From a virus: a stretch of 64,000 nucleotides of DNA. Positions within the stretch are counted from its first letter, which is position 1. Every line of letters starts with the position of its first letter. The stretch is taken from the IMG/VR virus record IMGVR_UViG_3300021400_000026, one strand, 5' to 3'. The notes under the pieces were generated by a model, which did no database searches, was not told where the DNA came from, and was given only the letters and a program-made list of their open reading frames with translations. Positions 8,719-63,398 of the stretch are shown in pieces. Both the position numbers and the translations under genes were made by a program.

Positions 8719-8967
8719 TTATGTCAGACGTTTCAGCGGTGCAAGGTCTTGCAAGGCTGGGTCGATGATGTCAACCGTCATTCCGAGGGCTTCGGCGATG
8801 GCTTGCAGCGTCTCGATGTTCACGGCATACTTGCCGCCCTCGATGCGCCCGATGTGGGTACGTTGCAATCCGGCACGCTGTGCCAACTCGTCTTGCGACA
8901 GGTCAGCCATGAGGCGCAGGGCTTTCACTCGCTGGCCGATTCTTGTACGGGTTTCTTCTTTGTTCAT
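8719..8967 (-). CDS. XRE-family HTH transcriptional regulator
   Basis: Contains LSQDELAQRAGLQRTHIGRIEGG. The C-terminal ALGMTVDIIDPALQDLAPLKRLT is shared with 57218..57631 and 61581..61853. Confidence 0.85.
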   Translation of the reverse strand: MNKEETRTRIGQRVKALRLMADLSQDELAQRAGLQRTHIGRIEGGKYAVNIETLQAIAEALGMTVDIIDPALQDLAPLKRLT

Positions 8968-10731: not shown

Positions 10732-11052
10732 TTAGCCTTCCCTCCACGCTTTTATGAATATGTCGAAGTCATTACCGTCTATCCATATCATTTCATTGAG
10801 TTTCTGCTGATACTCGAACATAATGCCGAATACGACATCTTTTGTATTACTCTCTGTAATGAGGTCTGTCACGCACACCACCTTAGAAGTATCTACCCAC
10901 AGCGGCATGTTGTCGGGCTGTTGTGATACATATTCCTTCAACCCTTTGCCCACGAGAGCCTTTGCTAACATACCCTCAATACCTTCTGCATTGTCCATCG
11001 CCTCGGCGACCTTTGCCGAGAATGTCCTTCGTGTAACTTTAATTTTTGCCAT
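10732..11052 (-). CDS. hypothetical protein (paralog of 63045..63398)
   Basis: MAKIKVTRRTFSAKVAEAMDNAEG... aligns along its full length with the other copy. Confidence 0.7.
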   Translation of the reverse strand: MAKIKVTRRTFSAKVAEAMDNAEGIEGMLAKALVGKGLKEYVSQQPDNMPLWVDTSKVVCVTDLITESNTKDVVFGIMFEYQQKLNEMIWIDGNDFDIFIKAWREG

Positions 11053-11272: not shown

Positions 11273-13315
11273 TTAGTAGTTACCCTCTATTTTTCCCTCG
11301 CCCAAATCGAAGCAATAGAGCGCGTCGAGCAGGGCGTGAACGGGGTCTATCTTGTTGCTGTGGCCTGCCCCTTTCACGATGCGCCTGATGGGTGGGTCGC
11401 CCTTGCTCTCTACGGCGCAGTTGCCGAAGCACCAGGGAAACAGGGGACTGTCGGAAAACTCCATCCATGCGTCCAGGCTTAGCATCTTCTCTTCCAGTTC
11501 GGTGATGCGGGGGTTCTGTGTGAATGAGGTCTGACTGACGGGTATCACCATGTGTTGGATAGCGTCGGCTATGTCCTTGGTTGACATACCCTCGCGCTTC
11601 TGGAAGAGCGTTTGGAGCCATGCCTTCAGGTTGTTAATCGGTGTGAGCGACTGCGCGGGGTCGTAGCCGAAGTAGTAGATGTTGATGCCCTTCTCCACCA
11701 ACTCCGCGATGCGGTTGATGGCGTAGGCACTGTCGAACACTTCACCTGGGCATACGTGCAACCATCCCTGCTCAATCCATTGCTCATAAAGCGGTTGGTT
11801 CGGGCTCTCCTTCATCGTCTTCTCCAGCACCCAGCAGTCGGTGTCAACAAAGAAGCGGCCCTTCATGGTGTCGCTCGGTAGCCAGTCCACAGCCATATAG
11901 GTAATGGCAAAGAGGTCATCTCCCGAAGAGAAATCGAGACCACAGAAGACGTGCCACCGCTCGCGGCCCTGCCCGTCGATGAACCGGCAGTCGTCTATGC
12001 GCTTGCCGCCGCTGGTCTGTAACTGTCGGATGCGGTCGCCGGTGATCCACTTCTGAATGCGCCCGGTCTGCCACATGTTGAAGTCCTTCGTCAGCACCTC
12101 CTGCTTGGTGTCCTCTGTGCCGGTGGCGGCTTCGTGAAGTCGCTCGCGGTAGTAGGTGGGCTGTACGGTGGTGCCGATGGAGCGGTTTACCTTCTTGAAG
12201 AGTTCAGGGTCATCGAGCTTCGTCAGGTCGTCGGTCAGTTCCCATTTGTCAAGTTGCAAGAGAAATGCGCACCATTTATCTTCTTCCGTGCGGCAGGGCT
12301 GTCCGAGGGGATAGTCCAACTCTTGCAACAGCGATGCTTCCACCTGCTCAATCTTGGTCTTGTAGGGGCCTTCCTTGATGCGTCCGGCGGTGGTGGTGTG
12401 CAGCAGCAGCTTTTCACGGCGCGGACCCGTTGAACCCCAACAGGTATCGACTGCCGCTTGCATGTCGGAGTGGGCGTTGACGTAACTCGCCTGTCCGTGC
12501 TCGTCGGCATGAACCACCGAGGCATAGAGTCCGTCCTTTGAGGTCTTGCCCGCTGCCATGCACTTGATTTCGCCCTTCATCGGATGACCTGGCTGCCAGT
12601 TCAGTCCGTTGCGGGTCATGCGGAAGTATTTGCCGCCCATGCGGTTCGAGCACGTGGGATCGACTTGCATGGCAAACTCGCGGATGGCTTTGTAGGCGAT
12701 TTGGCTCTGTTCGCTGCTGTTGGTGCAGATGAGAGCCTGCCCGTTCACGTCGCCGAGGAATCCCACCTCGGTGAAATCGACCGCGCCGCCCAGCTCTGTC
12801 TTTCCGCTCTTACGGGTCAGGAACCAGTGCGCCTCTTGAGTCAGCCGTCGCGTGTCCCACACCTCGCCGTCCTTCACCCACTCCGTAGGCAGCAGCATGT
12901 CGCCCTCGTAGTATTCGCGCTCCATCGGCACGTCCACCTTGAAGGCGTATATCTCGAAGATGAGCCACGCCTGAAACGGCATCAGTCGGACGTGCATCGC
13001 TCCGCGAGGGGTTGAGAACTTCAGTCCGCCCTTTACGTGTCGCCCGTTCTTCCACTGCCCCTCGATGGCTCGCAGCGACCGCTTCACCCGCTCGGGGTCG
13101 AGCTCGTAGGAATCCATCAGTCGCAGTTCCTTGCGGATGCCTAAGAGTTCGTAGAGGTTGGCATGACTGCCGTCGTTGCTGATAGCATCCTCGATGTAGA
13201 TAAGCAGTCGCGGGTCGAAGCTGTTCAGACGGTTCATATAGTCGGGCAGATGCGTCCGCAGATCATCGAGACATTGCGCCTTGGCTTGCCGCAGTTCTTC
13301 AAAGTCGTTGGTCAT
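11273..13315 (-). CDS. terL: terminase large subunit
   Basis: 680 aa with Walker-A-like TRKSGKT. Size and layout fit COG4626-type TerL. Overlaps terS by 4 nt. Confidence 0.85.
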   Translation of the reverse strand: MTNDFEELRQAKAQCLDDLRTHLPDYMNRLNSFDPRLLIYIEDAISNDGSHANLYELLGIRKELRLMDSYELDPERVKRSLRAIEGQWKNGRHVKGGLKFSTPRGAMHVRLMPFQAWLIFEIYAFKVDVPMEREYYEGDMLLPTEWVKDGEVWDTRRLTQEAHWFLTRKSGKTELGGAVDFTEVGFLGDVNGQALICTNSSEQSQIAYKAIREFAMQVDPTCSNRMGGKYFRMTRNGLNWQPGHPMKGEIKCMAAGKTSKDGLYASVVHADEHGQASYVNAHSDMQAAVDTCWGSTGPRREKLLLHTTTAGRIKEGPYKTKIEQVEASLLQELDYPLGQPCRTEEDKWCAFLLQLDKWELTDDLTKLDDPELFKKVNRSIGTTVQPTYYRERLHEAATGTEDTKQEVLTKDFNMWQTGRIQKWITGDRIRQLQTSGGKRIDDCRFIDGQGRERWHVFCGLDFSSGDDLFAITYMAVDWLPSDTMKGRFFVDTDCWVLEKTMKESPNQPLYEQWIEQGWLHVCPGEVFDSAYAINRIAELVEKGINIYYFGYDPAQSLTPINNLKAWLQTLFQKREGMSTKDIADAIQHMVIPVSQTSFTQNPRITELEEKMLSLDAWMEFSDSPLFPWCFGNCAVESKGDPPIRRIVKGAGHSNKIDPVHALLDALYCFDLGEGKIEGNY

Positions 13316-25427: not shown

Positions 25428-26663
25428 ATGAGCATAACAAAAGTAACAAGTGCAATCGTATGGGACCATCGGGGGCGTGTCGCCGAGGGTGGCAAGGGCC
25501 AGGTGGAGATCCGTGTGACGGTGGCCAGAAAGTCGTACCATTTCGGCACTGGTGTGAAGTGCTACAAGAACGAATTGGTGGCAGGGCAACTGTTAGACTG
25601 CCCTGGTAAGGATGAACTAAACCGCAAGATTGGAATCATATATAACAAGGTACTCGCGCTTGTGAATGCGTGCGTGGACGCGGGCGAACCTATTAATACC
25701 GAAGAGATACGGCGGCAGGTGTGGCAGACGGTGGAGGCGCAGTCGGACGAGCCTGTGTTCATGGACTGGCTGGCGGAGCAGGTGCCGGAGCTGGGCGTGT
25801 CTGAGGGTACACGGAAGCACTATGACCCGCTGCTGGTACGGCTGGAGGCTTTCGGGCGGATGAAGCGGTGGCAGGATGTGACCGTCGAGAATATCGCCAA
25901 CTTCGATGCGTGGTTGCATTGTATCACAAAGCCTTTGAGCGATGCCAGGCGCAAAGCTGGTGCCAAGCCTGAAAAGCTGAGCGATGCCGCTATTTATAAC
26001 TACCACAAGTGTCTGAAGGCTCTGCTCAACCGTGCGCTGTCGTTTGGAAAGATTGACGCAAACCCTTATGACCGCCTGAAGGGGAAGTTCAAGCGAGGTG
26101 AAAAAGAAAACGTGGAATATCTCACTGAGGAAGAAATGAAACGTTTCGAGGCTATCATACTGCCGAAAGGTTCAGAACTTGATGTCGTGCATGATCTCTT
26201 CATCTTCCAGATGTTCACGGGTCTGCCTTACTCTGATATGCAGGCCTTCGACGTATCAGATTATAAATGGGATGGCAAAGCATGGAAGCATGTCGGCGAA
26301 CGCATAAAGACTGGTGTGCCGTATGTTTCACAACTTCTCCCTCCGGCGGTGAAGATTCTCGAAAAGTATGGTTGGGAAATCCCGCAGTTATCCAATGCCG
26401 ACTATAACCGCCACTTGAAGGCACTCGGACAGATGGCTGGTATCAAGACACGGCTTCACTCACACCTCGCCCGTCACACCTTCGCCACCTACATGCTGCG
26501 CAATGGGGTGAAGATCGAAAATGTCTCGAAGATGCTCGGACACACGAATATCACGCAGACGCAACGCTATGCGAAGGTGCTGGCGGAGTCGGTGCATGAG
26601 GACTTCGACATGATAGCAGAGAAGCTCGAAACGAAGAAACGGAAAAGAATGTCTAACCCTTAA
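25428..26663 (+). CDS. int: tyrosine recombinase / phage integrase
   Basis: 411 aa. The C-terminal HLARHTFATYMLRNGVKIENVSKMLGHTNITQTQRYAKV carries the H-x-x-R ... H ... Y catalytic pattern. Confidence 0.9.
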   Translation: MSITKVTSAIVWDHRGRVAEGGKGQVEIRVTVARKSYHFGTGVKCYKNELVAGQLLDCPGKDELNRKIGIIYNKVLALVNACVDAGEPINTEEIRRQVWQTVEAQSDEPVFMDWLAEQVPELGVSEGTRKHYDPLLVRLEAFGRMKRWQDVTVENIANFDAWLHCITKPLSDARRKAGAKPEKLSDAAIYNYHKCLKALLNRALSFGKIDANPYDRLKGKFKRGEKENVEYLTEEEMKRFEAIILPKGSELDVVHDLFIFQMFTGLPYSDMQAFDVSDYKWDGKAWKHVGERIKTGVPYVSQLLPPAVKILEKYGWEIPQLSNADYNRHLKALGQMAGIKTRLHSHLARHTFATYMLRNGVKIENVSKMLGHTNITQTQRYAKVLAESVHEDFDMIAEKLETKKRKRMSNP

Positions 26664-41282: not shown

Positions 41283-41657
41283 TTATCCTTGCTGATTTGT
41301 TGCAGCAGCGGCTGGTGCCGGAGTGCTCAGCAGTTGGAGGATGTTGTTGCCGAGGTCGTTGAACACTTCCAGTACGCCTGTCCCCTGAAGGTCGGCCACC
41401 GTCACGGGCTGGCCTCCGAAGAAGGTCAACTGGCGGGTGTTGCCGTTCAGCGAAAGCGTCACGGGCAGCGCGGCATCGGTTCCTGCCGGGATGGCCGTAC
41501 CGATACGGACGTAAATCGTCCCGGTCGGTGCTATGTTGCGGTCGCCCATTGAGAGGTTCACGGCAGTAGTCCCAACGGTGATGTTCGTCACCATCAGGTA
41601 CGGCACGTAACCGTCAACGAACGGCACTTGGTTACAATTACAGTTGCAGCAGTTCAT
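41283..41657 (-). CDS. hypothetical protein, N-terminal MNCCNCNCN
   Basis: 124 aa. A Cys-rich N-terminus is followed by a beta-rich body. Confidence 0.6.
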   Translation of the reverse strand: MNCCNCNCNQVPFVDGYVPYLMVTNITVGTTAVNLSMGDRNIAPTGTIYVRIGTAIPAGTDAALPVTLSLNGNTRQLTFFGGQPVTVADLQGTGVLEVFNDLGNNILQLLSTPAPAAAATNQQG

Positions 41658-46453: not shown

Positions 46454-46552
46454 CTTAGTAGGGTATCTTTCGGAAGAATCCCTATATTCTTGTCGGAGAA
46501 TAACTATGTTCTTGTCAGAGAATAACTATGTTCTTGCCAGAGAATAACTATC
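46454..46552. repeat. TTAGTAGGG element + 3 tandem 22-bp repeats
   Basis: CTTAGTAGGGTATCTTTCGGAAGAATCCCTAT at 46454, then TTCTTGTCGGAGAATAACTATG x3 (46487, 46509, 46531). The last copy overlaps the portal stop. Confidence 0.85.
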
Positions 46553-47963
46553 AACTTTCCTCGCCCTCCTTTGGTGGTTCCTGCACGGTGTAACTGCCCG
46601 GCTTCAATTCCGTTGCGCCCTCGCTCTTGGCGATGAGAGCCTTCAGCGTCATCAGGTTGGCACTGGCCAGCGGCTCGTCGCCGTTCTCCACTGCCGGGCG
46701 GTCGTACTGCTGTCTGATCTCGTTGATGGTCGAAGCACCCGTCTGGAGCATAATCTGGTCAACCTTCGCCTGAGCCTCCTTGTCAAGCCGCATGAGTGGC
46801 TGTTCGCACATGTGGAACCGTCGCATTCCGAAGTCGTACTGGTTCAGCAGCTTGGAGTTGAACTCCTGCTCAATCTCCGTGATGTCGGGCTGAATGGTCC
46901 ATTGCAGCAACTCCATTCGTGCGTTCTGATAGGTCGTGTAATGCGAGTTGGTATCTTCCATCAGCAGCGGACGTTGAACACCGTAATACCTACAAACGTC
47001 GTTGATACCCATTCCTAACACCTCAATCATCTGCTGGTCTTGTGCCGACATGCTGATGTTGTGGAGGGCAGACAGTCCACGGATGCCCACCACGTCCTGC
47101 TGGTACATCTTCGTGTTCAGTTCCTTGGCGTAGGAGTCAATCTGTTCCTTGTTCAACAGTCCGAATGACAGCGTACCGGCACCCTGCGCCGGCTTCTCCT
47201 CACCGATGATGAGTTTCACGCGTCCGCCCTTCGCAGCCGTTTCCAGTGCCTGGTTCGTTTCCGTCTTGATGAGCGAGAGCGTGTCAAAGGCATAGTGAAG
47301 CGTGGAGATACCCCAGCCGTTGGTCATCTTGTAGGTGTTGGGGATGTGGATCACGTCCGATGCTTCCACTGCATCAATATTCATGATGCCCCGGCGGGTG
47401 TAGTATTGCACACGATATGTGCCGTTGGCTTCATTGTAGCCGGCACCGAAGCAGAGCCACAATGCCACGGGCCATCCCCGGTCGTCGCGCTCGATGTAGG
47501 CGATGCCGTTGCCGTTCTGGAGTTTCGAGATGACCAGCCCCTGCATGAAGGCCGAAGCCGTCATCATCGGGTTCGGACGGACTTGCAGCAGGTAGTTCAA
47601 CTGCTGCCCATAGGTGACATACTGACTGCACACGGCTCCCACTTCAGGAACGAAATTACCGCCCTTTTTGTCGAGTTTCTGATACTGGAGCATAAACTGC
47701 CCCTCCGTCTTGGCTATCAACCCGACGGCACGATAGACGGCGGGAACGGTCAGTGCTGCCTGTGGCGTCAGCACATGGCGGATGTGCGACTGGAACGAGC
47801 CGCTTTCGCCCGTAGCCTTGCTGCTGGTGGTTTCCGGCTCAGCCACATTCGTCTGGTCAGTGGTCTCGCGTACAGCCATTAACGGCATGTCGTCCACCGC
47901 CTCGCGCTGAAAACTATTGAATCTTGAAAAATTGCTCATATACGTCTTTTTCAAATCGGTCAT
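46551..47963 (-). CDS. portal protein
   Basis: 470 aa, called from size and position in the head module. Confidence 0.7.
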   Translation of the reverse strand: MTDLKKTYMSNFSRFNSFQREAVDDMPLMAVRETTDQTNVAEPETTSSKATGESGSFQSHIRHVLTPQAALTVPAVYRAVGLIAKTEGQFMLQYQKLDKKGGNFVPEVGAVCSQYVTYGQQLNYLLQVRPNPMMTASAFMQGLVISKLQNGNGIAYIERDDRGWPVALWLCFGAGYNEANGTYRVQYYTRRGIMNIDAVEASDVIHIPNTYKMTNGWGISTLHYAFDTLSLIKTETNQALETAAKGGRVKLIIGEEKPAQGAGTLSFGLLNKEQIDSYAKELNTKMYQQDVVGIRGLSALHNISMSAQDQQMIEVLGMGINDVCRYYGVQRPLLMEDTNSHYTTYQNARMELLQWTIQPDITEIEQEFNSKLLNQYDFGMRRFHMCEQPLMRLDKEAQAKVDQIMLQTGASTINEIRQQYDRPAVENGDEPLASANLMTLKALIAKSEGATELKPGSYTVQEPPKEGEES

Positions 47964-48015
47964 TTTGCCGTTATGGGTTTACCCGTCGGCACGGAGCCGA
48001 CGGGCACACGATGGA

Positions 48016-48360
48016 CTACACGTCGATGCTCTCGGCAAACTCATTGTAAGCCTTGAACTCGGCATATTCAGCTGAGTCATACTGCAACGTGGCCTTCAGC
48101 ACCTTGGCCAGCGTCTTGCGCAGGATTTTGGTTTCGTCGCCGTCGGGGTGAATCTCGCTGATGACGGAATCCTTTACCTTGTGCGGGTCGCGGGCGTCGG
48201 GCACCTGATAGATGTCGTACTGATACTCAGTGCGCTCTTCCTGTGTCTCAGGGTCGGTCACCTTGACCTCGCGCTCGTTGGTGAACACCTCACCGCTGTT
48301 GTCACCGGTGAGCTTGTGCAGGCCGAGTGCCTGCTTCTCAGGGAAATTAGCTGTGTACAT
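48016..48360 (-). CDS. hypothetical acidic protein
   Basis: 114 aa. Not Avd-like (acidic, no four-helix pattern). Confidence 0.6.
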   Translation of the reverse strand: MYTANFPEKQALGLHKLTGDNSGEVFTNEREVKVTDPETQEERTEYQYDIYQVPDARDPHKVKDSVISEIHPDGDETKILRKTLAKVLKATLQYDSAEYAEFKAYNEFAESIDV

Positions 48361-48368
48361 AATCGTTG

Positions 48369-49706
48369 TTATTTAGGGATATTGAATTGTTTGCGAATCA
48401 TTTCCTCTTCCTCGGCGTCGGTATATACCGTGCCGTCGTAATAAAAACCGCTCCAGTCGTGTACTATCTTCATGTCGCGCATGGGAATGTCATTCCGTGT
48501 CTTCGTGTCGAGATACTTGCATATCTTCTGTGCGCCCGTCGAATAGACTATCAGTCCCAGCCCGTCAGCAAGTGCCTGAATGTGGTAGTAACTGTCGCAG
48601 TCCTTCTGGTTGCTGCTGCGCTTCTGGAAGTCAACGATGGTGTGGGGGATGCCCTCCATCGTCTCAATCTTCATGGGTCGCCCGGCAAAGGGGCGACGGA
48701 TTTTCTCGCTCATAGTTCTGTTGTCTTGATATTGTACTCGTTTCTTCAGTTCCTTCGTGTCGGCTACTTCGATGATGCCCTTGTACGAGCCCATGCTGCG
48801 CTCACGATGACGAGCCTTCACGTATCGTTTCTTAGTGTCTTGTGTCAGGTGGACAAAACCGCGCCCGTACTGGTAGCCGCAGAAGATGATGGGCTGATAC
48901 TCTTTGCCAGGCTTAGCCTCGATGGGGCGCACATACATCGGCTTGTAGTGCAGTCGCATCTGTCTTGCCCATATTCGCATGTCGCGGCGCAGATTCTCCA
49001 GTGTCTTCTTGTCGCGGCTGAAGGCGATGAAATCGTCGGCAAAATTGACTACCTTGATACGATCGCCATATTTCTCTTTAGCCTTGCGGATGATGACGCT
49101 CATGTTCAGGTTGGCGATGAGGTGCGAGAAGGGGTCACCGATGGCGAGCCGCTTCTGGTTGAACAGATGCTGACGGATCACCGCCCTTGTGCGCTTATCC
49201 TTCACCTGTCGCTCTATCAACTTCATGCTGATTACGTTATCAACGTTGTCATAGAACTTGGAGATGTCGCCTTGCAGATAGTGCGTCAGGCTTCGGTCAT
49301 TCAGCAGCACTCGCATTCGTGCCACTACCTGGTGTCGCTTGTCTCTGGCGAGTACGCCGCAGCCGGGCAGACCGCCCAGCATGTCATCGGTCATCTGTCG
49401 CAGGATGAGCGGCTCGATGGCATCCTTCACAGCATTCTGCACACAGCGGTCTTCATAGGGCAGTACGCTGATGTCGCGTTCCTTCTTCTTGTCGCGCAGG
49501 CGGAAGTGGCGGTAGGGGCCAACGGCATAGGAGCCGTCACGCAGTTCAGCCTGCTTGCGCTGGCAGAAACCGTCCACGTCACGCATCACGCGGCGCACCT
49601 CGCGTTTCTTGCGCTGCTGTGCGGTCTTGGCCATGTATGCGTCGTTGGTTGCGGCATAGAGGCCGTTGACAGTGTTGTGCCATGTACTGATGCTCATACT
49701 CTTCAT
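48369..49706 (-). CDS. DGR reverse transcriptase
   Basis: RT motifs RDISVLPYEDRCVQNAV, LQGDISKFYDNVD, LAIGDPFSHLIANL and NFADDFIAF. The adjacent TR/VR pair shows A-specific mismatches. Confidence 0.9.
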   Translation of the reverse strand: MKSMSISTWHNTVNGLYAATNDAYMAKTAQQRKKREVRRVMRDVDGFCQRKQAELRDGSYAVGPYRHFRLRDKKKERDISVLPYEDRCVQNAVKDAIEPLILRQMTDDMLGGLPGCGVLARDKRHQVVARMRVLLNDRSLTHYLQGDISKFYDNVDNVISMKLIERQVKDKRTRAVIRQHLFNQKRLAIGDPFSHLIANLNMSVIIRKAKEKYGDRIKVVNFADDFIAFSRDKKTLENLRRDMRIWARQMRLHYKPMYVRPIEAKPGKEYQPIIFCGYQYGRGFVHLTQDTKKRYVKARHRERSMGSYKGIIEVADTKELKKRVQYQDNRTMSEKIRRPFAGRPMKIETMEGIPHTIVDFQKRSSNQKDCDSYYHIQALADGLGLIVYSTGAQKICKYLDTKTRNDIPMRDMKIVHDWSGFYYDGTVYTDAEEEEMIRKQFNIPK

Positions 49707-49911
49707 TTGTTTGTTCTTGACCTGCTGCGCCGATTGTCACTTTTGACTATGTGACAGCCTACCCTTTCCTTTGCTATTGCTTGCACGGTCGGCTGGTGGT
49801 CTTGGCACCTTTTCTTTGCGTTGTTTCGCTCTCCATCGTCAGCGAGGCTCTGCACCTGCCTCTTTGGTTGCAGGTCACAACCGCGAGGGCTTATTGGTTT
49901 TGTTTGCGTAT

Positions 49912-50024
49912 CAGTTGCCGAAGCCGATGTTCGTGTTCGCGTTCGAGGGCGAGTTGTTAGCGTTCATCGTCAACGGAGACAGGTTCGTGTTGTTAGCGTT
50001 GTTGCCGCGGCGAAAACCACGAAC
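49912..50024 (-). repeat. DGR template repeat (TR)
   Basis: 113 bp, 98/113 identical to the VR. On the coding strand it reads VRGFRRGNNANNTNLSPLTMNANNSPSNANTNIGFGN (AAC-rich). Confidence 0.9.
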
Positions 50025-50195
50025 CGACGGATCAGTGCAGCCGCCTTATCATTCTGTGAAAGAACTCAACCTCACCACCTGACGGGTACTCCGATTCCCT
50101 TGTGCGCTTTGGTCGGTGGCCTGGATTTCTGCATCAACGATGTCGCACCACATCTCCACACTATGCTGTCGATTCCTCGTATTGGGTTTACCAGA

Positions 50196-50237
50196 CAAAA
50201 AAACCGAGGCCACCCCACCATCGGGATGACCTCGGTT
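50196..50237 (-). terminator. intrinsic terminator between target gene and TR
   Basis: On the minus strand, AACCGAGG-20 nt-CCTCGGTT followed by TTTTTTT. Confidence 0.65.
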
Positions 50238-50403
50238 TCTGAATTTTCCACCCGCGACCTCCTTGAGGCGGTATCTTCACCCCTCCTTTCAGTCTGGGCC
50301 GCGCTGTCGCGCGGGTTTTCGTTTTCGGCCCTCACTACGTTCGGGCGGTTTACGTTTTCTTTTTCGGACGGGTCACTCACTTCGCTCGTGACGGACGTTT
50401 ACG

Positions 50404-52779
50404 TTAGCGAAGGCTGCAGCAGGTGCCGAAGCCGATGTACGTGCCCGCGTTCGAGGGCGAGGTGCTAGCGCCCATCGTCAACGGAGACAGGGACGTGAGG
50501 TTAGCGCAGGTGCCGCGGCGAAAACCACGAACACCCTTCTTACCTGCTGGTGCTGCGCCGCCCGTGAACCAATTGTACTTACCCACGTAGGTATGCAGAC
50601 CTGCGCCGGTCTTCAGGTCGTTGGTACGAGGCAGCATGAATGCACCGTCGAGATAGTCGCGGGCGCAGCCTTCGCCTGCTGCCACCTCCAGCACCATTGG
50701 GTAGCGATCTTCGAAATCAAAGGTGCTCTCTACATTGATGTCTCCTCTGACTGTCTTGAGCAGTTCGGCCTGGTTGCGCTCTAAGAAGCAGCGGTAGTTG
50801 CGGTTCTCATCCTCGGTCATCACCAGTCCGCTGACCCACCACGATGGCGACACTTGGGTGGTAACGCCGTGGAGCAGAGCCGTGGAGAAGATGAAGTCGA
50901 TACGCTTGCCAGTGAGATGCGTAGAACCGTCGGCGGGATCGATGGCGGCATTGGTGAACTGAGAAGAGAGTACCTTCCACACCACGCAGGTCATCTCGCC
51001 CTGGCCGGGGCCACGGAAGCCGGGCACGGAGCGATACTTGTACTTGTTGCCCTCGAAGACAAACCACTCCAGCTCTCCCACTCCCTTGCGCACGGCATAC
51101 GACACAGCCCTGTGAGCCTCCATCACGTGCCACGGATTGCGCCAAGAGTTGACCATCGCGCCCGTATATTGATCGGTGATGCCGAAGGCATTGTTGACGT
51201 TGAGATTCAGATACACGAGGTTATCCTGTCCGTTGACGTAGCGCAGGCCGTTGCGGGCTTCCGAGCCGGCTGCCTCAAACACGGCGGCGTTGGCTCCATC
51301 GTTGCTCGAGAATCCGCTGCCCATGAGCGCGGCATTGTGGGCATTGAAGGTGCCACCCTCCGCGAGCAGCAGAGCCTGGAGGTTGTTGCATGCCTCCGCC
51401 GTCTGGTTCATGAATGGCACGGTCTTGGTGGTATCGGGGTTCATGTTCATCGCCCGCTGCTCGCCGTCTGGCAGGCTGAGGTCAGTGGTATGCAGACCAC
51501 CTGCGCCGCCCAGTAGGGTGGCCTCCGAGTCGTATTCCTCGGTGATGGCTCCAGTTTCCTCGTTCTGATGGTAGATATACTTTCCGACCATCGCCACGGG
51601 GGCTGTATATGAGCCGTTCCAGGTCGGATTGTAAACTGAGTGCATGCGAGTCACGTTGTCGGTGTCCTGATGTGCCACGCAGTAGTCGGGTGACATGCCG
51701 CCACGGTCTATCTCCTCGGCATCGTAGCCGTGCCATGTGAACGGCTCGCGTGACATGAGGAACACGTCGTACTCCTGCCCCTCCACGGTGAAGTGGCCTG
51801 CCAGACGGTAGTACTTCTCGATGTTGCAAACCATCACGTCGCCCTCCGAGCCGTCGATGGCGTGCTGATTGTTTGCGATGTCGAGGGCATGGCCTGTGCC
51901 GTCCTCGTAGCCCAGCTTCTGTAGGACGAAAAGAACCTTGCCAATCTGGTCGTCGTTGCCAGAAAGCTTTGTGCCTACCAGACAGGGGTAGAAGATCGAG
52001 AATGCCGATTCGCGGCTGAAGCCTCCCTCCTCGTTGAACTTGTAGTGACGGTAGCTCAGCGCGGGCGATGACGAGCCGGCCACGCGCACGTATCCCTCAG
52101 CCAGCGTCTCGATGTCGGCCACCACGGACTGAAGAGCGGAGATGGCATCGGCATTGGCTTTCTCAGCAGTTTCTGCGCGGGTCTTCTCGGCAGCCACGGC
52201 ATTGCTGATAGCCGTGTTCATCTGCGTGGTGGTGCTATAAGACGTAAGGGCTTGGGCAATGGCGACATTCATCTGTGCTGTCGTCGAGTACGAAGTCAGT
52301 GCGGTGGCGATGGCGGATGATACCTGTGCGGCGGTCTGTTTCTGTGCCAGCAGGTTGTCCACTTGCGTCTTGTTATAGTATGACTCCAATGCCGTGCTGA
52401 TAGCCGTCGAAATCTGCGTGGATAGGTTCGCGGCCGTGGGCAGCGCGTCGAGCTTAGTCTTCAGCGCAGAAGTGAAGTCTTCGGTGGAGAGCTGCTTGCC
52501 GCTCACCTTGTCCACCTTGTTCGCCAGAAGATTGTCAGTGGCGGTCTTGGTGTAGTAGGCTGTCAGTGCGCTGGTGATGGCCGTACTGATGGCGGCGTTC
52601 ATCTGCTCGGTAGTAGAATAGGGTTCAAGCGCGGTGTTGATGAGCGTCTGCACCTGCTCGGAGTTTACGAATGCCTCGATAGCCTCCTGGATGGCGGCGA
52701 TGGCTTCGGCATGCTGCGGCACGAGGTTCAGTCGCTGCTGCACCTGTTCGCCGGTAAGGGTCAAATCGAAATCTGCCAT
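50404..52779 (-). CDS. DGR target: fibre-like receptor-binding protein
   Basis: 791 aa. N-terminal fibre-type repeats (TALTSYSTTAQMN...). The C-terminus ...VRGFRRGTCANLTSLSPLTMGASTSPSNAGTYIGFGTCCSLR carries the VR. Confidence 0.85.
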   Translation of the reverse strand: MADFDLTLTGEQVQQRLNLVPQHAEAIAAIQEAIEAFVNSEQVQTLINTALEPYSTTEQMNAAISTAITSALTAYYTKTATDNLLANKVDKVSGKQLSTEDFTSALKTKLDALPTAANLSTQISTAISTALESYYNKTQVDNLLAQKQTAAQVSSAIATALTSYSTTAQMNVAIAQALTSYSTTTQMNTAISNAVAAEKTRAETAEKANADAISALQSVVADIETLAEGYVRVAGSSSPALSYRHYKFNEEGGFSRESAFSIFYPCLVGTKLSGNDDQIGKVLFVLQKLGYEDGTGHALDIANNQHAIDGSEGDVMVCNIEKYYRLAGHFTVEGQEYDVFLMSREPFTWHGYDAEEIDRGGMSPDYCVAHQDTDNVTRMHSVYNPTWNGSYTAPVAMVGKYIYHQNEETGAITEEYDSEATLLGGAGGLHTTDLSLPDGEQRAMNMNPDTTKTVPFMNQTAEACNNLQALLLAEGGTFNAHNAALMGSGFSSNDGANAAVFEAAGSEARNGLRYVNGQDNLVYLNLNVNNAFGITDQYTGAMVNSWRNPWHVMEAHRAVSYAVRKGVGELEWFVFEGNKYKYRSVPGFRGPGQGEMTCVVWKVLSSQFTNAAIDPADGSTHLTGKRIDFIFSTALLHGVTTQVSPSWWVSGLVMTEDENRNYRCFLERNQAELLKTVRGDINVESTFDFEDRYPMVLEVAAGEGCARDYLDGAFMLPRTNDLKTGAGLHTYVGKYNWFTGGAAPAGKKGVRGFRRGTCANLTSLSPLTMGASTSPSNAGTYIGFGTCCSLR
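50420..50532 (-). repeat. DGR variable repeat (VR)
   Basis: Lies within the last 43 codons of the target gene. All 15 mismatches to the TR fall at TR adenines on the coding strand. Confidence 0.9.
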
Positions 52780-52801
52780 AATTCTTATGATTTTTTAGTT
52801 A

Positions 52802-53293
52802 CTAATTATTTTTCAAAACACGGAGCCGGAGACCGTTTACGTCGCGGAAGTAGTTCTGGAAGATGTCGCGCAGATAGCGGAACAGACTTCGCTTATCGCT
52901 GCGGAGCGTGCGCTCATAGGACACGTAGATACCCTGATAGATACCACCCTCGTCGCGCATCATCTGTGGCATCCTCGAACTGGTGTTCACGAAGCACAGC
53001 GGCTGCTGCTCCTTCTCTGTGCGGTAGCCGTCGGCATAGTCACCGTCGGGCACGTCGTAGGCACACTCCACCGTCACCACGCCAACCATGTCATTCGTCG
53101 GGAACGTAAAGAACCACTGGTCGGCCTCGTCTTTCATCATTTCCGACTTCTGTATCACGAGCGTCCGTCCCTGCATGCCCCATTTGAGGGTCACCGAAAA
53201 CGGGTTCTCTGACATGGAGAATCCTTCTCGCTCGATGGCGATGCGGTACTTTGCCTTCTCGCCTTGCTGAATGATGTTCTTGCTGTTGATCAT
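52802..53293 (-). CDS. hypothetical protein
   Basis: 163-aa track ORF. Confidence 0.65.
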   Translation of the reverse strand: MINSKNIIQQGEKAKYRIAIEREGFSMSENPFSVTLKWGMQGRTLVIQKSEMMKDEADQWFFTFPTNDMVGVVTVECAYDVPDGDYADGYRTEKEQQPLCFVNTSSRMPQMMRDEGGIYQGIYVSYERTLRSDKRSLFRYLRDIFQNYFRDVNGLRLRVLKNN

Positions 53294-53335
53294 ATCTAAG
53301 ATACTTTATATTTCACTTGTTTTGCCGTATCGGGT

Positions 53336-53626
53336 TTACTGCGGTATCCGTTCTTCAGCTGGATAGACCCTGAGAGCCTTGTCGCTGCTGTCGCGGAGCG
53401 TCAGCAGGTTCACGTCGCGGAGCGTCAGCATGCCCGTCTGCTGCACGATGGTGACTTGTGCCGAAGCCCGTCCGTCTGCCGTCCGTAAGGTAATGACTTG
53501 CTGGCGGTCACTGCCCAGATTGTCGGTGGTAGAACGAACGGTAACGACTCCATCACCTTGTCCGTCGTATGTCAGGATGATGTCGCCGTTGCCGTCGGTC
53601 CAGGGGATGGTGAGTGTCTTTGCCAT
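53336..53626 (-). CDS. BACON/Ig-like single-domain protein
   Basis: Pattern W..GNG...V....N.G..R...I. Confidence 0.5.
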   Translation of the reverse strand: MAKTLTIPWTDGNGDIILTYDGQGDGVVTVRSTTDNLGSDRQQVITLRTADGRASAQVTIVQQTGMLTLRDVNLLTLRDSSDKALRVYPAEERIPQ

Positions 53627-54249
53627 TACTCTACGGTCCAGTTGGTGTTACTTGTCACGTTGAACGATGCCGTCTTGCCCTGTGTGGCTGCATCCCAGTC
53701 GAGGTTGACGGTGGCCGGATCTACCTCCAATGTCGCGTCACCAGCTGCCTGCGTGATGGTACAGGTGGCGGAGTGTCCTGCCGCATCGGTCACGATGAGC
53801 TGTGCCGTGCGCTCAGTTACCACGGGATTCTTCGATATGCTGGCGAACTGAATGCTGAACGGGAACTCCTGCCCTGCTCCCGGGTCGCCTGCAATGGCCG
53901 CGCCGTTGTTCGTCTGTAGGGAGTTGGCCAGATAGGTGGCGGGAATTGTCAGCGGTAACGAACCGCCGGAAGCGAGGGCGAAGGTCAGCTTCGATGAGTT
54001 ACTGACGCCTTCGATAGTGAGTACCGTCACACCGTCCTTTGAGACGGCTGCTGCACTCTGAATGGTTACAAACTCAGGCTTGCCAGCCTGAATGACCGTG
54101 CGCACCACGTCGGCCACGTTCGCTGCCTTGAAGGCAATCTGTGTCTGTCGTGGACTGCGCCCGGTGTTATTGCTCACGGCGGTCACATCTACGGTGTCAT
54201 TGCCTGAGCCTGATGTCTTGCTTGGTAAAAGCCAATTTGCGTATGCCAT
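53626..54249 (-). CDS. BACON/Ig-like repeat protein
   Basis: 207 aa with two domains (...SGSGNDTVDVTAVSNNTGRSPRQTQIAF...; ...WDAATQGKTASFNVTSNTNWTV). Confidence 0.55.
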   Translation of the reverse strand: MAYANWLLPSKTSGSGNDTVDVTAVSNNTGRSPRQTQIAFKAANVADVVRTVIQAGKPEFVTIQSAAAVSKDGVTVLTIEGVSNSSKLTFALASGGSLPLTIPATYLANSLQTNNGAAIAGDPGAGQEFPFSIQFASISKNPVVTERTAQLIVTDAAGHSATCTITQAAGDATLEVDPATVNLDWDAATQGKTASFNVTSNTNWTVE

Positions 54250-54268
54250 ATCTTTGTGGTTTTAATGA

Positions 54269-54514
54269 TTATTCGATTCGCCAGTCAAGCGTTGTTATTA
54301 TCTCGTACCGCACCACATTGCCAGGCGTGACCCACTGAAGCGTCTGCGCCTTCTCGGGTGTGACCCTGATTGGCTTGTAGAGATTGCGACGCTCATCAAG
54401 TTGCGCGTTGACATAAATGCCGTTCGGTACGCTCCACGTTCGCGGATGTGCCTGGCATGTCAGCAGCCTAATGCCGCTATGAACTGAACCTGTGATGAGT
54501 CTTGCGCTGTTCAT
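54269..54514 (-). CDS. hypothetical protein
   Basis: 81-aa track ORF. Confidence 0.55.
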   Translation of the reverse strand: MNSARLITGSVHSGIRLLTCQAHPRTWSVPNGIYVNAQLDERRNLYKPIRVTPEKAQTLQWVTPGNVVRYEIITTLDWRIE

Positions 54515-55140
54515 CCTCGAATGGTGATGTGTGGGTTAATGCGAACAACTGACTTGCGGAACCCGCTGGGGAAGTCTTTATCTGGAATCTGGAACGTCAC
54601 CTTTACCATGAGCGTGCCAATGCCATAGTCGTCGGTGTTGATGATAACCACGTAGTCGCCTTCGTCGGTCAGTATGCACTCCGTCTTCTTGAACGTCTTC
54701 CTCTTGTCCTTGGCGTCGGCATTGACCACTTCCACGGTGAAGTCCACATCTTGCATGGTGAGGTCGTCCGGCAGTTCCGACGTGATGAGTATCTTCTCTT
54801 GCGAGCCGAGCGTGACGGTCTGCTGCCTAATCCCGCAAGGCTCAGAAGTCAGCCGCATGTACGGCTTGATGAGCATGTCGAAAGCGTAAGGCACACTACT
54901 CAGGTTCTGAGCCGACGAAGGCTCACGGTGCTGGTACGATTGTCCCACCAGCAGCATAGCGGCCTGAACCAGCGGGGCCGGCACTTCGCCGTAACTTTCC
55001 AGCAGATCATGGTAGTTGCGGTTCAGCAGGTTCAGCAAGGTGTCCTCTGCGGCCTTGCCATACTCGTCGAGTAAGGTGTCCTCTTCGCTCCAGTCTATAC
55101 GAAGCTGCTGCTTGATGTAATCCAATGTGAGAAATTTCAT
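54511..55140 (-). CDS. head-tail connector (gp6-like)
   Basis: Trimmed to MKFLTLDYIKQQLRID...; the N-terminal pattern fits the gp6-like connector family. Confidence 0.6.
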   Translation of the reverse strand: MKFLTLDYIKQQLRIDWSEEDTLLDEYGKAAEDTLLNLLNRNYHDLLESYGEVPAPLVQAAMLLVGQSYQHREPSSAQNLSSVPYAFDMLIKPYMRLTSEPCGIRQQTVTLGSQEKILITSELPDDLTMQDVDFTVEVVNADAKDKRKTFKKTECILTDEGDYVVIINTDDYGIGTLMVKVTFQIPDKDFPSGFRKSVVRINPHITIRG

Positions 55141-55213
55141 ATTTCTGCCTTTTTTACTTAGCGGCAGAAATACGTCTTGGGGTTTACCGCCTGCCGACAA
55201 CTGGGGCAAGCGC

Positions 55214-55239
55214 AAAAAAATGGGCGACCGCTGTCGCCC
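55214..55239 (-). terminator. intrinsic terminator
   Basis: On the minus strand, GGGCGAC-agcg-GTCGCCC followed by ATTTTTTT. Confidence 0.7.
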
Positions 55240-57217: not shown

Positions 57218-57631
57218 TTATATAATACCAGATTGCTTCATGCGTCGGTATAATGTCCTTTCAGAAACGCTCATTATTTTTTCGAGTTCATTCTTTTCGT
57301 ACTCTAATATAGGCAACCTATGCTCTTCTTCTTCGATGTATTCCTCGATGGTTTCTTCCTTTGAGGTCGGTACCGGCTTTGGTGTCAGGCGTTTCAACGG
57401 TGCCAGGTCTGTGAGTCCTGGGTCGATGATGTCAACAGTCATGCCGAGTGCTTCGGCTATCTGCTGGATGGTGACGTAGGCCACGCTCACCAGTTTGCCC
57501 TTCTCGATGCGCCCGATGTGCTGGCGGGTCAGTCCGGCACGGTCAGCCAGTTCCTGTTGGCTGATGCCCTCCAGTTTGCGCAGGGCAGTGATACGCTGCC
57601 CCATGCGCTGTGCTGCTTGTTCTTTACTCAT
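57218..57631 (-). CDS. XRE-family HTH regulator with C-terminal extension
   Basis: Contains ISQQELADRAGLTRQHIGRIEKG and the shared ALGMTVDIIDPGLTDLAPLKRLT. Confidence 0.8.
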   Translation of the reverse strand: MSKEQAAQRMGQRITALRKLEGISQQELADRAGLTRQHIGRIEKGKLVSVAYVTIQQIAEALGMTVDIIDPGLTDLAPLKRLTPKPVPTSKEETIEEYIEEEEHRLPILEYEKNELEKIMSVSERTLYRRMKQSGII

Positions 57632-61580: not shown

Positions 61581-61853
61581 TTACTCCGTCAGACGTTTCA
61601 GCAGTGCGAGGTCTTGCAAGGCTGGGTCGATGATGTCAACCGTCATGCCGAGGGCTTCGGCGATGGCTTGCAGCGTCTCGATGTTCAGCGAGTATCTGCC
61701 TTTCTCTATCCGCGATATGTGGGTACGTTGCAACCCTGCTTTCTCCGACAACTGCTCTTGGCTCAGTCCGGCATTCTTGCGCAATGCTGCGACACGCATT
61801 CCGATGCGCTGGCGTACTTCTTTGCGCTTCACGTTTTTTTCTTCTGTCTCCAT
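61581..61853 (-). CDS. XRE-family HTH regulator
   Basis: Contains LSQEQLSEKAGLQRTHISRIEKG. The 3' ~100 nt are nearly identical to 8719..8820. Confidence 0.85.
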   Translation of the reverse strand: METEEKNVKRKEVRQRIGMRVAALRKNAGLSQEQLSEKAGLQRTHISRIEKGRYSLNIETLQAIAEALGMTVDIIDPALQDLALLKRLTE

Positions 61854-63044: not shown

Positions 63045-63398
63045 TCACTCTCCTTTCCATGCTTTCATAAATACCTCGAAGTCCTTGCTGTCTATCCACA
63101 CAATATCGCTGATTTTCGGCTGATACTGAAACATGATGCCAAAAACTTGGTCATGCGTGGTTTCCTCTTCGGTGACAGCGGTCACACATACCACCTTGTC
63201 GGTATCTACCCACAGCGTTTGATAGTCTGGCTGTTCAAGCAGATATTCCTTCAGTGTCTTACCCATAAGGGCTTTGGTGAACATGCCTTCAAGTCCTTCA
63301 GCATTGTCCATCGTTTTTGCTACTGTAGCAGAAAAAGTTCTGCGTGTCAATTTGATTTTTGCCATAGTTCCTTGATAATTTATGAGAAATTCGTTCAA
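63045..63398 (-). CDS. hypothetical protein (paralog of 10732..11052)
   Basis: MAKIKLTRRTFSATVAKTMDNAEG... The start may be at the internal MAKIK (63361, catagtt context). Confidence 0.7.
   Translation of the reverse strand: MNEFLINYQGTMAKIKLTRRTFSATVAKTMDNAEGLEGMFTKALMGKTLKEYLLEQPDYQTLWVDTDKVVCVTAVTEEETTHDQVFGIMFQYQPKISDIVWIDSKDFEVFMKAWKGE

Follow-up and report, generated by a model that had tools for sequence, protein, structure and literature searches.

A diversity-generating retroelement without a recognised Avd gene, apparently active in a probable temperate phage of Bacteroidales

Introduction

In prokaryotes and their viruses, targeted hypermutation of proteins is naturally carried out, as far as is known, only by diversity-generating retroelements (DGRs), which are also being engineered for directed evolution. 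Almost everything that is understood of their mechanism derives from one Avd-dependent system, that of Bordetella phage BPP-1 (mtd-avd-TR-brt), in which a non-coding template repeat (TR) upstream of the reverse transcriptase (RT) gene passes its sequence, with adenine-specific changes, to a variable repeat (VR) at the target gene's 3' end. Of the curated DGRs, 74% have Avd and 26% do not, with Lineage 3 being wholly without it (PMC5758913, PMC7290462), and it is to this lineage that the RT of crAssphage LMMB has been assigned (PMC7290462). Here, we describe a cassette that lies entirely on the minus strand of a 64,000-nt stretch of virus DNA (the window; IMG/VR record IMGVR_UViG_3300021400_000026) and which an earlier reading made from the letters alone (the sequence-only reading) had taken for a complete DGR diversifying the C-terminus of a fibre-like protein. 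Our analysis indicates that this is very probably a genuine, apparently active DGR of a temperate Bacteroidales (Prevotella-like) phage. The kind of system is already well known, and this version of it, without Avd, is little studied.

Comparison with described DGRs

Like the BPP-1 DGR, the window cassette has a VR at the 3' terminus of its target gene, a non-coding TR upstream of the RT gene, adenine-specific transfer between the two, and a fixed 3' boundary that resembles the initiation of mutagenic homing (IMH) element. The window RT finds its best match, by both sequence and structure, in the product of BPP-1 brt (27% identity), with counterparts of residues R74 and I181 being kept. At the RNA level, a duplex between the sequence upstream of the TR and the spacer is followed by a stem-loop and adenosines, an arrangement akin to the Bordetella 'cPRT Stop', in which an upstream:Sp duplex is joined by a short stem-loop and by A-minor adenosines (bioRxiv 10.1101/2023.10.23.563531). 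In contrast, BPP-1 has Avd, whereas the window has neither Avd nor, where the spacer begins, the conserved stem-loop to which Avd binds. Moreover, the BPP-1 RT is a protein of 328 aa with SQ and YMDD motifs, whereas that of the window has 445 aa, an extra C-terminal domain, and SH and FADD in their place, and the BPP-1 spacer measures 140 nt against about 180 nt for the conserved spacer structure of the window. There are further deviations in the target, which is not Mtd-like and has no detected lectin fold, and in a candidate target-site hairpin, which lies much farther downstream of the VR than in BPP-1.

With the Avd-less DGRs of Lineage 3 from Bacteroides and crAss-like phages (PMC5758913, PMC7290462), the cassette shares the order target-VR-TR-RT on one strand without avd, hosts among the Bacteroidales, a TR of some 35 codons that contains about 28 adenines, and a phage fibre-type target, as the window target has BFVD matches to crAss-like fibre proteins. 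This order, in which avd, HRDC, and MSL are all missing, corresponds to the Architecture A layout of Wu et al. However, the RTs of crAss-like phages are about 340 aa long, carry IGxxxSQ and YADD motifs, and are about 29% identical to the window RT, and the crAss VR is built on a lectin-type framework (GG...AGLFNL...NIGSRL) that differs from that of the window (GFRRG-NN-A-NN-T-N-LSPL...NIGFG). The best-matching crAss-like cassette, from phage cr6_1 (locus L046; NC_055894.1, 89710-97422), proved to be a conventional avd-less DGR with an 88-nt TR/VR pair (21/21 mismatches at adenines), an RT of 342 aa with IGNYLSQ and YADD motifs, and a target without sequence similarity to that of the window, and on these grounds we regard the window cassette as no close relative of the described Lineage 3 elements. 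The target and RT of cr6_1 also contain in-frame stops under table 11, which suggests stop-codon recoding in that phage.

Among GenBank phages, we found no close relative of the cassette at the DNA level. The genome matches are metagenome-assembled genomes (MAGs) of Bacteroidales/Bacteroidaceae, one of them ruminal, and one match in the protein database comes from a Prevotella MAG.

Template and variable repeats

The cassette comprises these features, with positions given in the window:

50404..52779, minus strand: target gene, 791 aa, with a helical N-terminus (about residues 1-225), a beta-rich core (about 260-640), and a VR-bearing C-terminal tail
50420..50532, minus strand: VR, 113 nt, ending 5 codons before the target stop, with its mutable zone at 50436-50511
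50417..50435, minus strand: VR 3' boundary, invariant and IMH-like, TCGGCTTCGGCACCTGCTG; the TR counterpart at 49909-49927, TCGGCTTCGGCAACTGATA, differs at fixed positions
49912..50024, minus strand: TR, non-coding and intergenic, with 29 adenines, 27 of which are in its mutable zone at 49928-50003
48369..49706, minus strand: RT gene, 445 aa, with the core and thumb in residues 1-300 and an extra C-terminal alpha/beta domain at about 345-445
R77, D147, I189-GDPFS-H195, and F222-ADD225 of the same gene, minus strand: key RT residues
48016..48360, minus strand: ORF114, an acidic protein of 114 aa (111-119 aa in its family) with an isoelectric point (pI) of 4.7, starting 8 nt after the RT stop

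The largest repeat family returned by a repeat search of 47500-53500 is the pair 49912-50024 / 50420-50532 (113 nt, 87% identity). Realignment on the coding strand reproduced the gapless match over 113 bp with 98 identities that the sequence-only reading had reported. Its translations of the TR and VR and its open reading frames (ORFs) were also exact, and the ORF coordinates confirm that 5 codons separate the end of the VR from the stop. The 15 mismatches all fall at TR adenines, of which 29 are available (hypergeometric P = 4.3e-11), and all of them are at codon positions 1 or 2, with 14 being in mutable AAC codons. As for the non-adenine positions, the TR and VR are identical at 84/84. When the TR was used as a probe with every A replaced by N, it found only two sites in the 64-kb window, where 0 were expected by chance, and these are the TR and VR just described. 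On this basis, the presence of a further VR or target was considered and rejected.

For comparison, relatives of the cassette were gathered as 22 loci from a search of a viral collection with the RT and as 11 further loci from a search of genomes and viral contigs with ORF114. The pooled TR/VR statistics cover 17 of the RT-derived loci, and 7 ORF114-derived loci, two of them identical, are extra to these.

With the final A of TTCGGCA taken as position 0, the mutable zone of the 17 loci extends from 87 to 12 nt upstream of it, and this A is itself unchanged in 17/17 VRs. Position +1 is C in 17/17 VRs and A or C in the TRs, and an invariant TCGGCTTCGGCA precedes the fixed VR-specific bases in the 17 VRs. 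Since this C is universal among the VRs and the neighbouring A never varies, the window mismatch at VR 50423 (AAC in the TR, ACC in the VR) represents a fixed VR/TR boundary difference. Accordingly, the claim that all 15 mismatches sit at TR adenines stood up to recomputation, but one of them is not a product of mutagenesis, and the changes of the mutagenesis type number 14, all inside the 76-nt mutable zone (VR 50436-50511). By analogy with BPP-1, the 3' boundaries of the VR and TR may act as an IMH/IMH*-like element. We also considered a 7-nt extension of both repeats (CTGATAC/CTGCTGC), with two further 'A' mismatches, and rejected it; these positions are fixed in the VRs yet variable in the TRs, and therefore lie outside the transferred region. 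A segment of 28 nt inside the RT gene (48917-48944), which is 82% complementary to VR 50429-50456 and 75% to TR 49921-49948, was likewise set aside as chance, because relatives match at 8-19 of the 28 positions and synonymous sites vary freely.

The 27 adenines of the TR mutable zone are distributed over 16 codons (12 AAC, 3 of the ACG/ATG type, and 1 ATC) within about 25 residues. From these, about 7e15 different peptides are possible, and a stop codon is unreachable.

Signs of activity across related cassettes

A TR/VR pair of 113-121 nt, with nearly all mismatches at TR adenines, lies upstream of the RT gene in the 17 RT-derived and the 7 ORF114-derived loci. When the 17 are pooled, the TR differs from its cognate VR at 281/465 adenine sites versus 22/1439 non-adenine sites, with the adenine substitutions being A to G (115), A to T (109), and A to C (57). 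Moreover, where a TR has locus-specific variants at non-adenine positions, these are matched in the cognate VR in 654/674 cells, as against 62% for non-cognate pairs. Because cognate VRs mirror the non-adenine variants of their TRs, each TR must continue to pass information to the VR of its own locus, and this adenine-specific and directional flow is seen in about 25 cassettes.

The sequence-only reading had named a lack of VR heterogeneity across many related genomes or reads as one ground for refutation, and across related genomes the heterogeneity turned out to be massive. In the three closest target homologues, 44-52% of the 25 mutable-zone residues differ compared with 3-6% elsewhere in the protein, a roughly ten-fold excess. 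Loci with near-identical TRs have VRs that differ at 14-21 of 27-28 adenine sites, and in 3/4 of these pairs, 0 of 76-77 non-adenine VR sites differ. RT, TR, and VR also co-occur across differing genomic contexts.

Several relatives have decayed. In L018 (IMGVR_UViG_3300003523_000271, 1100-1600), the target ends, through in-frame fusion, in a repeat of the TR type without mutations, GNNANNTNLSPLTMNANNSPSNSNTNIGFGN, a separate VR is lacking, and the repeat runs directly into the spacer RNA and RT, which is the product expected of homologous recombination between VR and TR. L034 (2900-3900) and L036 (2500-3500) carry independent deletions (window equivalents about 50089 to 48411 and about 50039 to 48435, respectively) that took the TR, the spacer, and nearly the whole RT gene but spared a diversified VR, the final codons of the RT, and ORF114. 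The RT is degenerate in L045, and L004 shows five non-adenine TR/VR mismatches. Since such decay products demonstrate turnover of the cassette, the identity of the window TR and VR at 84/84 non-adenine positions is a meaningful sign of recent activity.

Reverse transcriptase

Family searches place the RT in Pfam RVT_1 (3e-16) and PHROG 1423 (RT; 1.5e-41), and its own family counts 267 members versus 239 for ORF114. A sequence search of the PDB gave as top hit the DGR RT of Bordetella phage (8ub7, E = 9e-15), with the best group II intron RT at 4e-6. Rather consistently, a Foldseek search with the AlphaFold model of the RT (mean predicted local distance difference test score, pLDDT, of 79.3) ranked 8ub7_A first (E = 2e-15, TM 0.73). 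The top tblastn matches among GenBank phages include known DGR phages (crAss-like, and BPP-1 through brt) at identities of 29% or less, and none of the matches from this search reaches into the C-terminal domain. The NCBIfam scores are all below their cut-offs (72 of 300 bits for the group II intron model TIGR04416, 29 of 200 for Drt3a, and 27 of 235 for retron St85), and PADLOC returned weak generic RT and DRT matches only. The affinity of the enzyme to DGR RTs rather than to those of group II introns or retrons, as anticipated by the sequence-only reading, is thus borne out by the PDB sequence search, by Foldseek, and by the NCBIfam scores.

In 69 homologues, the catalytic aspartates D147, D224, and D225 are invariant. 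The same holds for R77 and I189, which correspond to two bRT residues that promote adenine mutagenesis, R74 and I181 (PMC7826257). DGR RTs are marked by the signature [I/V/L]GxxxSQ, whereas other RTs have QGxxxSP (PMC7826257). Here, the signature reads IGDPFSH, with the isoleucine of the DGR type and not glutamine, and with a final histidine that agrees with neither SQ nor SP and is invariant in the same 69 homologues. Hence, the IG block and the FADD box that had been read from the translation are both present, although the former is not the canonical motif ending in SQ.

More conspicuously, the AlphaFold model shows an extra alpha/beta domain of about 105 aa (residues 345-445, pLDDT 73-88) after the thumb and a disordered linker, whereas bRT has no such domain. 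Residues 341-445 had no match in NCBIfam, and the full-length RT had no Pfam match in this region.

Spacer RNA, and the absence of an Avd homologue

No match to the Avd family (Pfam 23S_rRNA_IVP/Avd) was found in the cassette ORFs or in the 54 window ORFs of 70-220 aa. The cassette is therefore complete, as the sequence-only reading had it, in the sense of target-VR-TR-RT, but not in the sense of including an Avd homologue. An ORF between the VR and TR (50072-50380, 102 aa, GTG start) was considered as a candidate for Avd and rejected, as it has no family match and its tblastn similarity amounts to DNA conservation. Among relatives, the length of the VR-TR interval ranges between 184 and 432 nt, no conserved ORF lies in it, and given this variable length and the terminator-like hairpin that it carries, we consider the 102-aa ORF to be spurious.

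The hairpins and RNA elements of the cassette are as follows:

50299..50314, minus strand: GC-rich hairpin CCGCGC-GACA-GCGCGG, 105 nt downstream of the VR, a candidate target-site hairpin or cruciform
50197..50235, minus strand: terminator-like hairpin located after the target gene, CCGAGG...CCTCGG and then T7, kept in L034 and L036
50033..50047, minus strand: TR 5' flank, AAGGCGGCTGCACTG (GGC-GG-CTGCAC), pairing with spacer GTGCAG-A-GCC (49846-49855)
49716..49895, minus strand: structured spacer RNA, a core of about 180 nt in the 209-nt TR-RT interval, conserved in all loci
49866-49882, minus strand: spacer hairpin with an invariant GACCUG loop and at least 5 different stem sequences
49846-49855, minus strand: spacer strand of the flank-spacer duplex, GTGCAG-A-GCC
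49827-49844, minus strand: spacer stem-loop CGCU/AGCG, then AAACAA, with a compensatory CG/GC pair
49795-49809, minus strand: spacer helix GGUG/CACC
49756-49794, minus strand: spacer helix AGCCGACC/GGGUAGGCU
49736-49755, minus strand: spacer helix GUCAC/GUGAC
49719-49724, minus strand: invariant spacer CAGGUC, complementary to the GACCUG loop

The structure comprises 37 base pairs, and over 19 distinct sequences, 99.7% of cells are paired, compared with 28-36% when the partners are slid. Compensatory changes occur in 11 of the pairs, and in 0/500 shuffles was the observed covariation score reached. The duplex between the TR 5' flank and the spacer (helix 1) consists of 9 pairs, with 99.4% of cells paired and 2 compensatory changes in the L012/L014 lineage. 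It replaced an alternative helix proposed by RNAalifold (AGGC/GCCU), as it is the flank-spacer duplex that has compensatory support. The GACCUG loop and the CAGGUC element about 150 nt downstream could, judging from their complementarity, form a pseudoknot.

A search of Rfam returned no family in 47900-53000 (E <= 1). The RNA core motif was found in 21 of 2.9 million IMG/VR contigs, all with the cassette, and 20 of these were among the contigs that the RT or ORF114 searches had yielded before; the one new contig (L061) carries a cassette with an RT of 57% identity. In six loci (L005, 5456-5715; L021, 5753-6009; L011; L013; L019; L022), we noticed an extra GC-rich hairpin immediately after the TR (e.g., ACGGCGG-TACTT-CCGCCGT). 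In DGR RNAs of the Bordetella type, the stem-loop that binds Avd occupies this place. The hairpin is absent from the window and from many other loci.

Phage DGR targets have been described as carrying a hairpin with a 4-nt GRNA loop at 4-34 bp downstream of the VR (Guo et al., PMC3240598). The GACA loop of the window hairpin at 50299-50314 fits the 5'-GRNA consensus. Comparable hairpins with varied loops are situated 31-182 nt downstream of the VR in most, though not all, relatives.

Target protein and genomic setting

The target has more than 1000 homologues. Pfam revealed no domain in the target or in 9/10 homologues scanned, and no lectin-type family in 10 diverse homologues. In the AlphaFold2 (AF2) model (mean pLDDT 65.5), the beta-rich core (260-640) is confidently predicted, whereas the VR-bearing tail (753-791) has pLDDT < 50. 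A fold search of the PDB with this model gave no match (best E = 0.7), nor did a profile search of PDB sequences. In BFVD, the same model matched a gut-phage 'receptor binding complex' protein (E = 4e-25) as well as crAss-like 'tail fiber' and 'tail collar fiber' proteins (E = 2e-4 to 6e-3), all of these being annotation names only. Such matches suggest that the target is a fibre-like, probably receptor-binding, protein.

The C-type-lectin fold holds nearly all known VRs, and the sequence-only reading had expected it at the tip of the target. It was not recovered by the AF2 model of the tail or by searches of PDB folds, PDB sequences, or Pfam, although the N-IGFG at the C-terminal end of the VR recalls the ...NIGFR of the lectin type. 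According to Roux et al. (PMC8144416), VR domains on phage fibres that are still uncharacterised may represent lectin variants not yet discovered.

Gene annotation agrees with the earlier placement of the cassette between adaptor/BACON genes and the portal gene, away from the tail block. Specifically, the target lies between genes for head-tail adaptor and BACON-like proteins (53336-55215) and the portal gene (46551-47963), upstream of the head completion, protease, and capsid genes of the head/neck module, and so it is plausible that the protein would form part of a neck or head fibre. The window also includes genes of a temperate phage, among them those for an integrase (25428-26663) and TerL (11273-13315). 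Between the adaptor and the target are two adjacent BACON-like proteins (53336-54249, minus strand; 207 aa with a match at 2.3e-6, and 96 aa with a weak one), which might serve as glycan-binding decorations and accompany the cassette in its closest relatives.

Elsewhere in the window, we observed three paralogous XRE-type helix-turn-helix (HTH) genes (8719-8967, 57218-57631, and 61581-61853, all on the minus strand; Pfam HTH_3) that share a near-identical C-terminal segment, ...ALGMTVDIIDPALQDLAPLKRLT, and a pair of paralogous small ORFs (10732-11052 and 63045-63398, minus strand) with the pattern MAKIK[V/L]TRRTFSA...WIDG/S.DF..F.KAW, about 52 kb apart. Together, the repeated HTH genes and small ORFs suggest either that a regulatory module was duplicated or that the scaffold contains two related elements. 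An ORF of 124 aa without a family match (41283-41657, minus strand), located just downstream of the capsid block, starts with the Cys-Asn repeat MNCCNCNCNQ.

Alternative explanations

In sum, the locus combines an RT with affinity to DGR RTs, an adenine-restricted TR/VR pair, a VR at the 3' terminus of the target, directional transfer, boundary elements, and a flank-spacer RNA duplex. One other way to account for these would be an ordinary duplication under diversifying selection, adjoined by an RT from an unrelated element such as a group II intron, a retron, or a defence system. It is true that the best NCBIfam model for the RT is that of a group II intron RT/maturase (72 bits) and that PADLOC gave weak generic RT and DRT matches, but 72 bits compares with a 300-bit cut-off, the Drt3a and retron scores likewise fall far below theirs, and neither a group II intron nor a retron RNA was detected by Rfam in 47900-53000 (E <= 1). 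Moreover, the best sequence and structure matches of the RT are to a DGR RT, and RT, TR, and VR stay together in different genomic contexts. Above all, the mismatches are strictly at the adenines of one copy (P = 4e-11), and likewise in about 24 independent cassettes; by this adenine-specific, directional pattern the explanation is effectively refuted, and we assign it next to no probability. A different possibility is that of a recently inactivated relic, in which a once diversified VR is now frozen, for instance because of the SH/FADD motifs or the lack of Avd. The non-canonical RT motifs, the absence of Avd, and the decayed relatives (collapsed L018, L034 and L036 without RT, L045 with a degenerate RT, and L004 with 5 non-adenine mismatches) would fit this, yet SH and FADD are invariant in 69 full-length homologues of 71-94% identity, which points to a functional enzyme kept under purifying selection. 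In the window, the RT gene has an intact ORF, and the TR and VR agree at 84/84 non-adenine positions. Cognate VRs follow non-adenine TR variants throughout the family, phages that are only 3-6% divergent already have unrelated VRs, and the literature accepts DGR lineages that work without Avd (PMC5758913, PMC7290462). We therefore hold inactivation in this genome to be very improbable.

There is also the question of what ORF114 does. It is a cassette-linked protein, being found directly 3' of the RT gene (at -4 to +13 nt) in 22/22 RT-derived loci even as the portal, adaptor, and BACON neighbours vary, and it had no match in Pfam, PHROG, NCBIfam, PADLOC, or the PDB. One could regard it as a functional replacement for Avd, that is, as an accessory factor of an Avd-less DGR lineage comparable to CH1, a small acidic protein (pI 4.7, 160-169 aa) found only in avd-less Bacteroides-type DGRs of Architecture E / Lineage 3a (Wu et al., PMC5758913). 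In favour of this are the constant position next to the RT, a family size that parallels that of the RT (239 versus 267), and a narrow family (239 clusters at 90% identity, 33 at 50%). Moreover, ORF114 and CH1 are alike in being small, acidic (pI 4.7 in both), without a recognisable motif, and encoded by a conserved flanking gene. However, this likeness to CH1 is by description only and serves as a lead only, the sizes differ (111-119 aa in the ORF114 family), and an acidic protein is unlikely to bind RNA as Avd does. In addition, ORF114 outlasts loss of the RT, since L034 and L036 independently lost the TR, spacer, and RT but retain ORF114 together with its start region, which suggests a need for the protein outside reverse transcription, such as in the assembly or function of the target fibre or in the virion. 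With ORF114 weakened by these RT-less derivatives as a clear Avd substitute, and without a family or PDB match, we find such a role unlikely, if still conceivable.

Returning to the cassette as an active DGR, a number of observations weigh against this interpretation or parts of it. The RT signature ends in H instead of Q, and its catalytic box is FADD and not YxDD. The VR domain is not assignable to the C-type-lectin fold, and the GC-rich hairpin is 105 nt from the VR, versus the published 4-34 bp, and does not occur in all relatives. The GACCUG/CAGGUC pairing is invariant and hence unproven by covariation. ORF114, as it is kept in two RT-deleted cassettes (L034 and L036), may be unrelated to retrohoming. 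Lastly, the decayed L018, L034, L036, and L045 indicate that such cassettes are lost fairly often, and the activity that we ascribe to this particular genome would follow from comparison across genomes.

Proposed mechanism

Based on the above, we envisage a transcript composed of a short 5' flank, the 113-nt TR, and the structured spacer of about 180 nt, in which the flank would pair with the spacer and loop out the TR, giving a geometry like that of the 'cPRT Stop' duplex, stem-loop, and adenosines of the Bordetella phage DGR RNA, and one that may suit priming in cis. The adjoining 445-aa RT would then copy the TR into cDNA, misincorporating opposite adenines, and the invariant IMH-like boundary would set the 3' limit of replacement. 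As the outcome, 16 codons would be randomised within the last 35 or so residues of the 791-aa target. The role of Avd may be covered by the enlarged RNA and the extra C-terminal domain of the RT.

Taken further, the cassette might represent a distinct, Avd-independent DGR ribonucleoprotein, in which the RT-fused domain of about 105 aa and a multi-helix spacer RNA (maybe with the GACCUG/CAGGUC pseudoknot) replace the Avd-pentamer scaffold, the VR is displayed on a fold not recognisable as a C-type lectin, in a fibre encoded by the head/neck module and not by the tail genes, and ORF114 acts as a third partner specific to the lineage. We offer this composite picture tentatively, as less likely than not.

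Significance

One further DGR is by itself no surprise. The features that deserve attention here are those in which this version varies, namely, the C-terminal domain of the RT, the SH and FADD motifs, the large covarying RNA, ORF114, and the unclassified VR domain. With about 25 sequenced variants, the cassette family provides a compact and comparatively rich example of a DGR without Avd, and its covarying RNA and the extra RT domain lead to testable hypotheses on how reverse transcription might be primed and bounded when Avd is missing. For the phages themselves, the diversified target is marked as an adaptive surface, probably one that binds the host or glycans, in phages of rumen and gut Bacteroidales.

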